Assembly (NCBI RefSeq): GCF_053078305.1
Contig: NZ_CP166879.1
Direction: 5' to 3' (one strand)
Length of the DNA: 64,000 nt
Each line of letters opens with the position of its first letter. Position 1 is the stretch's first letter. The notes beneath the pieces were generated by a model that saw only the letters and a program-made list of their open reading frames with translations, made no database searches and was not told where the DNA came from. Position numbers and translations under genes: made by a program. Positions 57,675 to 57,770 of the stretch are shown one piece after another.

Positions 57675-57690
57675 TTGACCGTTTAGTCCA
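57675..57690. promoter_or_regulatory. Candidate RutR operator (TTGACCGTTTAGTCCA)
   Basis: 11 of 14 matches to the RutR consensus TTGACCAnnTGGTCAA; between rutR and rutA. Confidence 0.45.
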
Positions 57691-57754
57691 CTTTTTACCA
57701 GATATTTTAGATAACGCAATGTTAACACATTAATAACATTCACTTTTTAAAAAC

Positions 57755-57770
57755 TGGCATCCGCTTTGCA
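57755..57770 (+). promoter_or_regulatory. Sigma54 promoter for the rut operon (TGGCAT-N5-TTGCA)
   Basis: tggcatccgctttgca read directly, with the -24 GG and -12 GC elements correctly spaced; rut is known to be NtrC/sigma54-dependent. Confidence 0.7.

Follow-up and report, generated by a model that had tools for sequence, protein, structure and literature searches.

Results

The rutR/rutA Spacer of E. coli as a Probable Two-Signal Control Region

The segment under study, positions 57675 to 57770 of a 64,000-nucleotide stretch of DNA (herein the window), belongs to the E. coli control region from which rutR and rutA diverge. It holds nothing new in kind: its two motifs, a RutR box and a sigma-54 promoter, are sites demonstrated experimentally in K-12. 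Published work on the identical K-12 sequence has established RutR binding and its release by uracil, occupancy by sigma-54 and NtrC, and the need for the box in rutR autoregulation. The best explanation of the region as a whole, to which we assign a probability of about 0.93, is a two-signal account, in which phosphorylated NtrC and sigma-54 would switch the rut operon on and uracil would remove RutR.

Both motifs lie inside a 230-bp spacer that separates rutR, on the minus strand, from rutA. The earlier note had proposed a RutR-like operator and a sigma-54 promoter upstream of rutA, and both strings are found on the plus strand exactly at the positions it gave. The genes and the main control elements are as follows; all center positions are relative to a predicted rutA transcription start at ~57781 and depend on it.

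56930-57568, minus strand: rutR coding sequence (TetR-family uracil-responsive regulator, 212 residues), concordant with the annotation of the near-identical strain LH50-c
57631-57647, no strand assigned: NtrC-like site 1, TGCACTCTCATCGCGCA, one mismatch to TGCAC-N7-GTGCA, center ~-142
57652-57668, no strand assigned: NtrC-like site 2, TGCATGTTTTATGTGCA, one mismatch to TGCAC-N7-GTGCA, center ~-121
57675-57690, read on the plus strand: RutR box (operator), TTGACCGTTTAGTCCA, center ~-98.5, within the rutR leader
57755-57770, plus strand: sigma-54 -24/-12 promoter, TGGCATCCGCTTTGCA, with GG at 57756-57757 and GC at 57768-57769
57856-63299, plus strand: rutABCDEFG operon (rutA 57856-58947, then rutB to rutG), from the open reading frame list and the LH50-c annotation (offset 50399)

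The gene products are well defined. RutR of the window scores well above cut-off with two NCBIfam equivalogs, NF011584 (463.6 bits; cut-off 230) and TIGR03613, and shows 100% identity to the K-12 protein; RutA likewise scores well above cut-off with its equivalog, TIGR03612 (725.8 bits). Of 5426 complete E. coli genomes, 5421 contain the rutR/rutA region, labelled with these two gene names, and only 44 of the 5421 reach an identity of at least 99% over 601 bp. Judged from sequence, the window comes from an E. coli lineage other than K-12 MG1655. Comparison with the K-12 rutA promoter region, which the earlier note had suggested as a check, gave 98% identity for the spacer region (341 bp aligned), with the RutR box, the sigma-54 motif, and both NtrC-like sites the same base for base; the substitutions (57557, 57649, 57717, 57728, and 57741, plus 57777 just 3' of the promoter) all fall outside these elements.

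The RutR Box Is the Published K-12 Site and Serves rutR as Well as rutA

RutR boxes are 16-bp imperfect palindromes resembling TTGACCAnnTGGTCAA, whose A4 and T13 matter most for binding (PMC2475637). TTGACCGTTTAGTCCA agrees with this consensus at 11 of the 14 specified positions, A4 and T13 among them, as the earlier note had counted, and the gene for the cognate regulator, rutR, is adjacent and divergent. Its reverse complement is TGGACTAAACGGTCAA, the RutR site published for rutA, and the box has the same sequence as a site bound by RutR in K-12 experiments. The primary footprint paper for the RutR site is reportedly Shimada 2007. Shimada et al. 2008 give TGGACTAAACGGTCAA as the rutA target of RutR (11/14), on the basis of ChIP-chip and an electrophoretic mobility shift assay (EMSA), and say that it corresponds to an already known RutR-binding site (PMC2475637).

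In EMSA with the rutA-rutR fragment, RutR forms a single complex (KD ~8.6 nM), from which it is released by uracil with half-inhibition at ~9 nM (PMC2952853). Four substitutions in the box (operator-constitutive) abolish the uracil-sensitive negative autoregulation of rutR-lacZ; the mutant was assayed on this fusion and not on rutA (PMC4325133). The same study places the box downstream of the rutR start and upstream of the rutA promoter, describes it as a single box that represses both wings, and explicitly calls the mechanisms of RutR control unknown (PMC4325133). Repression of rutABCDEFG by RutR through a single box is stated in several papers, PMC10891134 and PMC4325133 included; PMC2952853, in conflict with these, words the role of RutR at rutA as “activation.”

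The box doubles as the rutR autoregulatory operator. It does not overlap the promoter and is found between the latter and the NtrC-like sites, the nearer of which is 6 bp away. Its description in the earlier note is incomplete in two respects: the box is located near -98, beside the probable enhancer and not over the promoter, and it also controls rutR. Given the identity of both the sequence and the protein with those of K-12, uracil-sensitive RutR binding and repression of rutA would be expected in the strain from which the window derives.

The rutA Promoter Is of the Sigma-54 Type

TGGCATCCGCTTTGCA has the GG-N10-GC arrangement of a -24/-12 element and a single mismatch to TGGCAC-N5-TTGCW, at a weakly conserved position, in agreement with the promoter class named in the earlier note. 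It is oriented toward rutA, and its first base is 44 bp upstream of ATG 57799 and 101 bp upstream of ATG 57856. The start at ~57781 is predicted from the usual -12 spacing; a literature search for start-site mapping returned no mapped rutA transcription start in the accessible papers. The motif corresponds to CTGGCATCCGCTTTGCA, site OS10 of a sigma-54 ChIP-seq study, where it is assigned to rutA (PMC4591121). In that paper rutA carries the flag “P,” which we read as previously predicted and not experimentally confirmed (PMC4591121). Genomic SELEX (gSELEX) with the RpoN holoenzyme gave a peak in the rutA/rutR spacer (71-73%; PMC8743547), and the motif also appears, under b1012, in the list of Zhao et al. 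(PMC2831329). Occupancy of TGGCATCCGCTTTGCA by the sigma-54 holoenzyme, published for the identical K-12 sequence, may be presumed here as well.

Two NtrC-Like Sites Adjoin the RutR Box

Just upstream of the RutR box are two inverted repeats, spaced 21 bp (NtrC-like sites 1 and 2), that lie outside the coordinates covered by the earlier note and had been missed by it. The pattern TGCAC-N7-GTGCA with at most one mismatch occurs three times in the whole window, twice in this spacer; measured against TGCACCAnnnTGGTGCA, the two sites are moderate matches (10/14 and 9/14, our own count). ChIP-seq of NtrC in nitrogen-starved cells shows 94-fold enrichment at the promoter of ycdMLKJIHG, the old name of rutA-G (PMC4066584). 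At several promoters the NtrC ChIP-seq peaks coincide with sigma-54 motifs (PMC4066584, PMC4591121), so where in the spacer NtrC binds cannot be read from these data. A term search for rutA gave no match in the NtrC-alone gSELEX section (40% cut-off), and the gene turned up only in the RpoN tables (PMC8743547). The accessible papers likewise yielded no NtrC footprint on the two sites themselves. Sites 1 and 2, conserved across Enterobacterales, are most likely the enhancer of the rutA sigma-54 promoter.

The Enhancer-Box-Promoter Arrangement Is Conserved across Enterobacterales

For the comparison, 80 rutA loci, each of another species of Enterobacterales, were retrieved, and 79 of these loci were usable; counts given “of 80” comprise these 79 and the window. 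In 79/79 other species, a sigma-54 motif (zero or one mismatch) is located upstream of rutA in the arrangement seen in the window, a RutR box is found 68-90 bp upstream of that motif, and NtrC-like sites occur further upstream. Control segments of equal length from inside the rutA coding sequence contained the sigma-54 motif in 0/79 cases, the RutR box in 1/79, and an NtrC-like site in 6/79.

Spacing is tightly held on the enhancer side of the box. NtrC-like site 1 (at most two mismatches) precedes the RutR box by 42-46 bp in 70 of 80 loci, and the offset from the best match to site 2 is 23-24 bp in 76 of 80. The distance between box and promoter falls into two classes that differ by one helical turn and are split largely by family: 78-81 bp (40 loci, mostly Enterobacteriaceae) and 88-90 bp (38 loci, Erwinia, Pantoea, Yersinia, and Serratia included). 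A second RutR box lies 18-19 bp downstream of the first in 17 loci (Erwinia, Serratia, Yersinia, some Pantoea, and others).

Within E. coli the spacer is unusually polymorphic (90-99% identity), more so than its flanks; in 1934 genomes, 161 bp of it are at 90-95% identity. Seven divergent haplotypes share an unchanged RutR box and an unchanged NtrC-like site 2; among them, NtrC-like site 1 varies at one N position only, and changes in the sigma-54 motif are confined to unspecified positions. The polymorphisms of these haplotypes spare the motifs and cluster at 57697-57722, between the RutR box and a conserved block described below.

Additional Elements in the Spacer and the RutA Start

Three further elements were noted between the RutR box and the sigma-54 promoter.

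57694-57709, no strand assigned: degenerate second RutR box, TTTACCAGATATTTTA, 9/14 by our own reading, with the left half kept; a remnant
57704-57733, minus strand: tentative rutR sigma-70 promoter (-35 TTAATG at 57733-57728, 18-bp spacer, -10 TAAAAT at 57709-57704)
57723-57738, no strand assigned: conserved block, TAACACATTAATAACA, overlapping the tentative rutR -35

The box remnant corresponds in place to the second box of the 17 loci; its region is polymorphic within E. coli, and EMSA with the K-12 rutA-rutR fragment shows one complex only (PMC2952853). A standard scan of the spacer for a rutR sigma-70 promoter gave none above threshold; the tentative promoter is the only 8/12 candidate on the minus strand in a relaxed scan. 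It would start rutR at ~57697 and put the RutR box at ~+8 to +23, which agrees, if tentatively, with the published placing of the box 3' of the rutR start (PMC4325133). The block TAACACATTAATAACA shows strong conservation in 12 Enterobacteriaceae genera and hardly varies within E. coli. It contains an IHF-like string, TATTAATGTGTTA (57723-57735, minus strand), with one mismatch to WATCAANNNNTTR. We regard the block as a putative IHF-like element, a rutR -35 region, or both; as an IHF site it is not established. A weaker sigma-54-like string, TGGCAACAGGATAGCA (57590-57605, plus strand; GG-N10-GC with two mismatches), is situated in the rutR leader near the rutR start codon, and a similar one is seen in Kosakonia loci; it is probably incidental.

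Two start codons, the choice of which affects the leader length, have been annotated for rutA: ATG 57799 in K-12 (382 residues) and ATG 57856 by PGAP (363 residues). Position 1 of the TIGR03612 profile aligns to the Met at 57856, a GAGG-like Shine-Dalgarno sequence stands just 5' of the equivalent ATG in most loci inspected, and an in-frame stop separates the predicted transcription start from this ATG in 50 of 80 loci, another E. coli included. Together these three observations favor 57856 and support the shorter, 363-residue RutA as the better start call. An Rfam search by E-value over 57500-57950 for structured RNA gave no match, and the rutA leader ranges from 30 to 159 nt among genera; on these two grounds a conserved riboswitch or leader element was ruled out.

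Other Features of the Window

At a distance from the rut locus, the window contains a tRNA gene (2194-2278), with a tRNA-Ser at the matching position in the near-identical LH50-c. In LH50-c, three gene groups come after the tRNA (roughly 2400-31000 in window coordinates): a cluster of fatty-acid/polyketide-like type that includes an ABC transporter, a pair of two-partner secretion genes, and an operon for fimbriae. The tRNA gene and the three gene groups look like the layout of a tRNA-adjacent island, with collinearity of the window and LH50-c judged by tRNA position only. An Rfam match to Ysr251 (RF02855, antisense-type small RNA, 189 bits) at 43728-43921 on the plus strand lies opposite the 3' part of phoH, by the LH50-c annotation.

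Discussion

Two Signals at One Spacer

In the account we favor, rutABCDEFG would be transcribed from the sigma-54 promoter, with its predicted start at ~57781. The promoter would otherwise be silent, and under nitrogen limitation phosphorylated NtrC would act on it from an upstream enhancer, most likely the NtrC-like sites centered at ~-142 and ~-121. The uracil-free RutR dimer would bind the single box at ~-98.5 and be released by uracil, and this one box would repress in both directions, toward rutR and toward rutA. Toward rutR, the box would lie in the early transcribed region, and RutR probably blocks elongation or promoter escape. Toward rutA, occlusion of the polymerase is not what we envisage; RutR would most likely hinder assembly of the active NtrC oligomer or its contact with the promoter-bound sigma-54 polymerase. 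What we infer here is where exactly NtrC binds, where transcription starts, and that RutR works by anti-activation. Anti-activation at the enhancer is favored because sigma-54 holoenzyme could not be occluded from -98. Nitrogen-regulated, RutR-repressed expression of the operon, as read in the earlier note, is supported by the identity with K-12 and by the binding and occupancy papers; that description was incomplete, as it lacked the enhancer, the position of the box, and its role at rutR.

A more far-reaching proposal is that RutR is not a classical operator-bound repressor at all and is instead an anti-activator that forms part of the NtrC enhancer. Sitting 6 bp away from the proximal NtrC site, on the same face of the helix, it would block NtrC oligomer assembly or promoter contact. 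We put this forward tentatively and think it somewhat unlikely. The fixed distance between NtrC-like site and RutR box, like the conserved phasing, agrees with anti-activation without proving it. If RutR did act in this way, binding of NtrC within the rutR leader might, conversely, lower transcription of rutR.

The box might instead be mainly or only the rutR autoregulatory operator, with the rutA promoter under NtrC alone and any effect of RutR on rutA indirect, through RutR level or uracil pools. The location of the box in the rutR leader and the use of rutR-lacZ for the sole operator mutant assayed (PMC4325133) would fit such an arrangement, as would a sigma-54 promoter that cannot be occluded by a site at -98. 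So, too, would the behavior of a strain carrying only the rutR deletion, in which rutA is not switched on and its mRNA is not raised in exponential-phase LB cultures (PMC10891134). However, the lack of derepression is just what is expected of an activator-dependent promoter when NtrC is inactive, and several papers have RutR repressing rutABCDEFG through the single box. The comparative data also argue against a purely autoregulatory box: its rigid offset from the NtrC-like site points to joint action, although constraints shared within the rutR leader could also produce it, and the stepping of the box-promoter distance by one helical turn would be expected of a box working with the enhancer and is hard to reconcile with a pure rutR roadblock. 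We consider this alternative improbable.

That both motifs are functionless chance matches to short degenerate consensus sequences deserves practically no credence: each pattern is about as frequent in the window as in shuffled sequence (RutR pattern, at most three mismatches, 3 matches in 64 kb against 3.02 expected; sigma-54 pattern, at most one mismatch, 3 against 3.36), but this reading is refuted by the published binding data for the very same sites and by conservation in the same order and spacing in 79/79 other species against 0-1/79 coding controls, and it is opposed as well by the position and orientation of the motifs and by their invariance within E. coli at specified positions while the neighboring spacer varies.

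Under the two-signal account, the region is a textbook catabolic operon control region, in which nitrogen limitation (NtrC/sigma-54) is combined with substrate availability (uracil releasing RutR), and it carries little weight as a discovery. What the present analysis adds is modest and comparative: the order of enhancer, box, and promoter and their helical phasing are kept across ~80 Enterobacterales species. This conservation gives a concrete way of testing how a sigma-54 promoter is repressed by a TetR-family protein sited at -98.

Comparison with Known Systems

The closest known system is the K-12 rutR-rutABCDEFG control region itself (rutAp), with the same locus, gene order, and spacer and with substitutions outside the motifs only. 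Promoters of the glnAp2 type, whose site positions we used for comparison, share with rutA the GG-N10-GC promoter, two NtrC-type repeats that lie over 100 bp upstream and face the same side of the helix (here ~-142 and ~-121), and activation under nitrogen limitation. Unlike them, rutA has the site of a TetR-family repressor between its NtrC-like sites and its promoter, at 6 bp from the nearer of these sites, and its probable enhancer sits inside the leader of the divergent gene. The RutR box of carAB P1, TTGACCATTTGGTCCA (13/14), is a similar 16-bp box bound by the same protein with comparable affinity (PMC2475637, PMC2952853), and, like the rutA box, it lies far upstream of the promoter that it affects. 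The outcome is the opposite one: at carP1, RutR bound at -184.5 acts positively, as an anti-repressor, on a promoter that is not of the sigma-54 type (PMC2952853, PMC4325133), whereas at rutA its action is negative and the promoter is a sigma-54 promoter.
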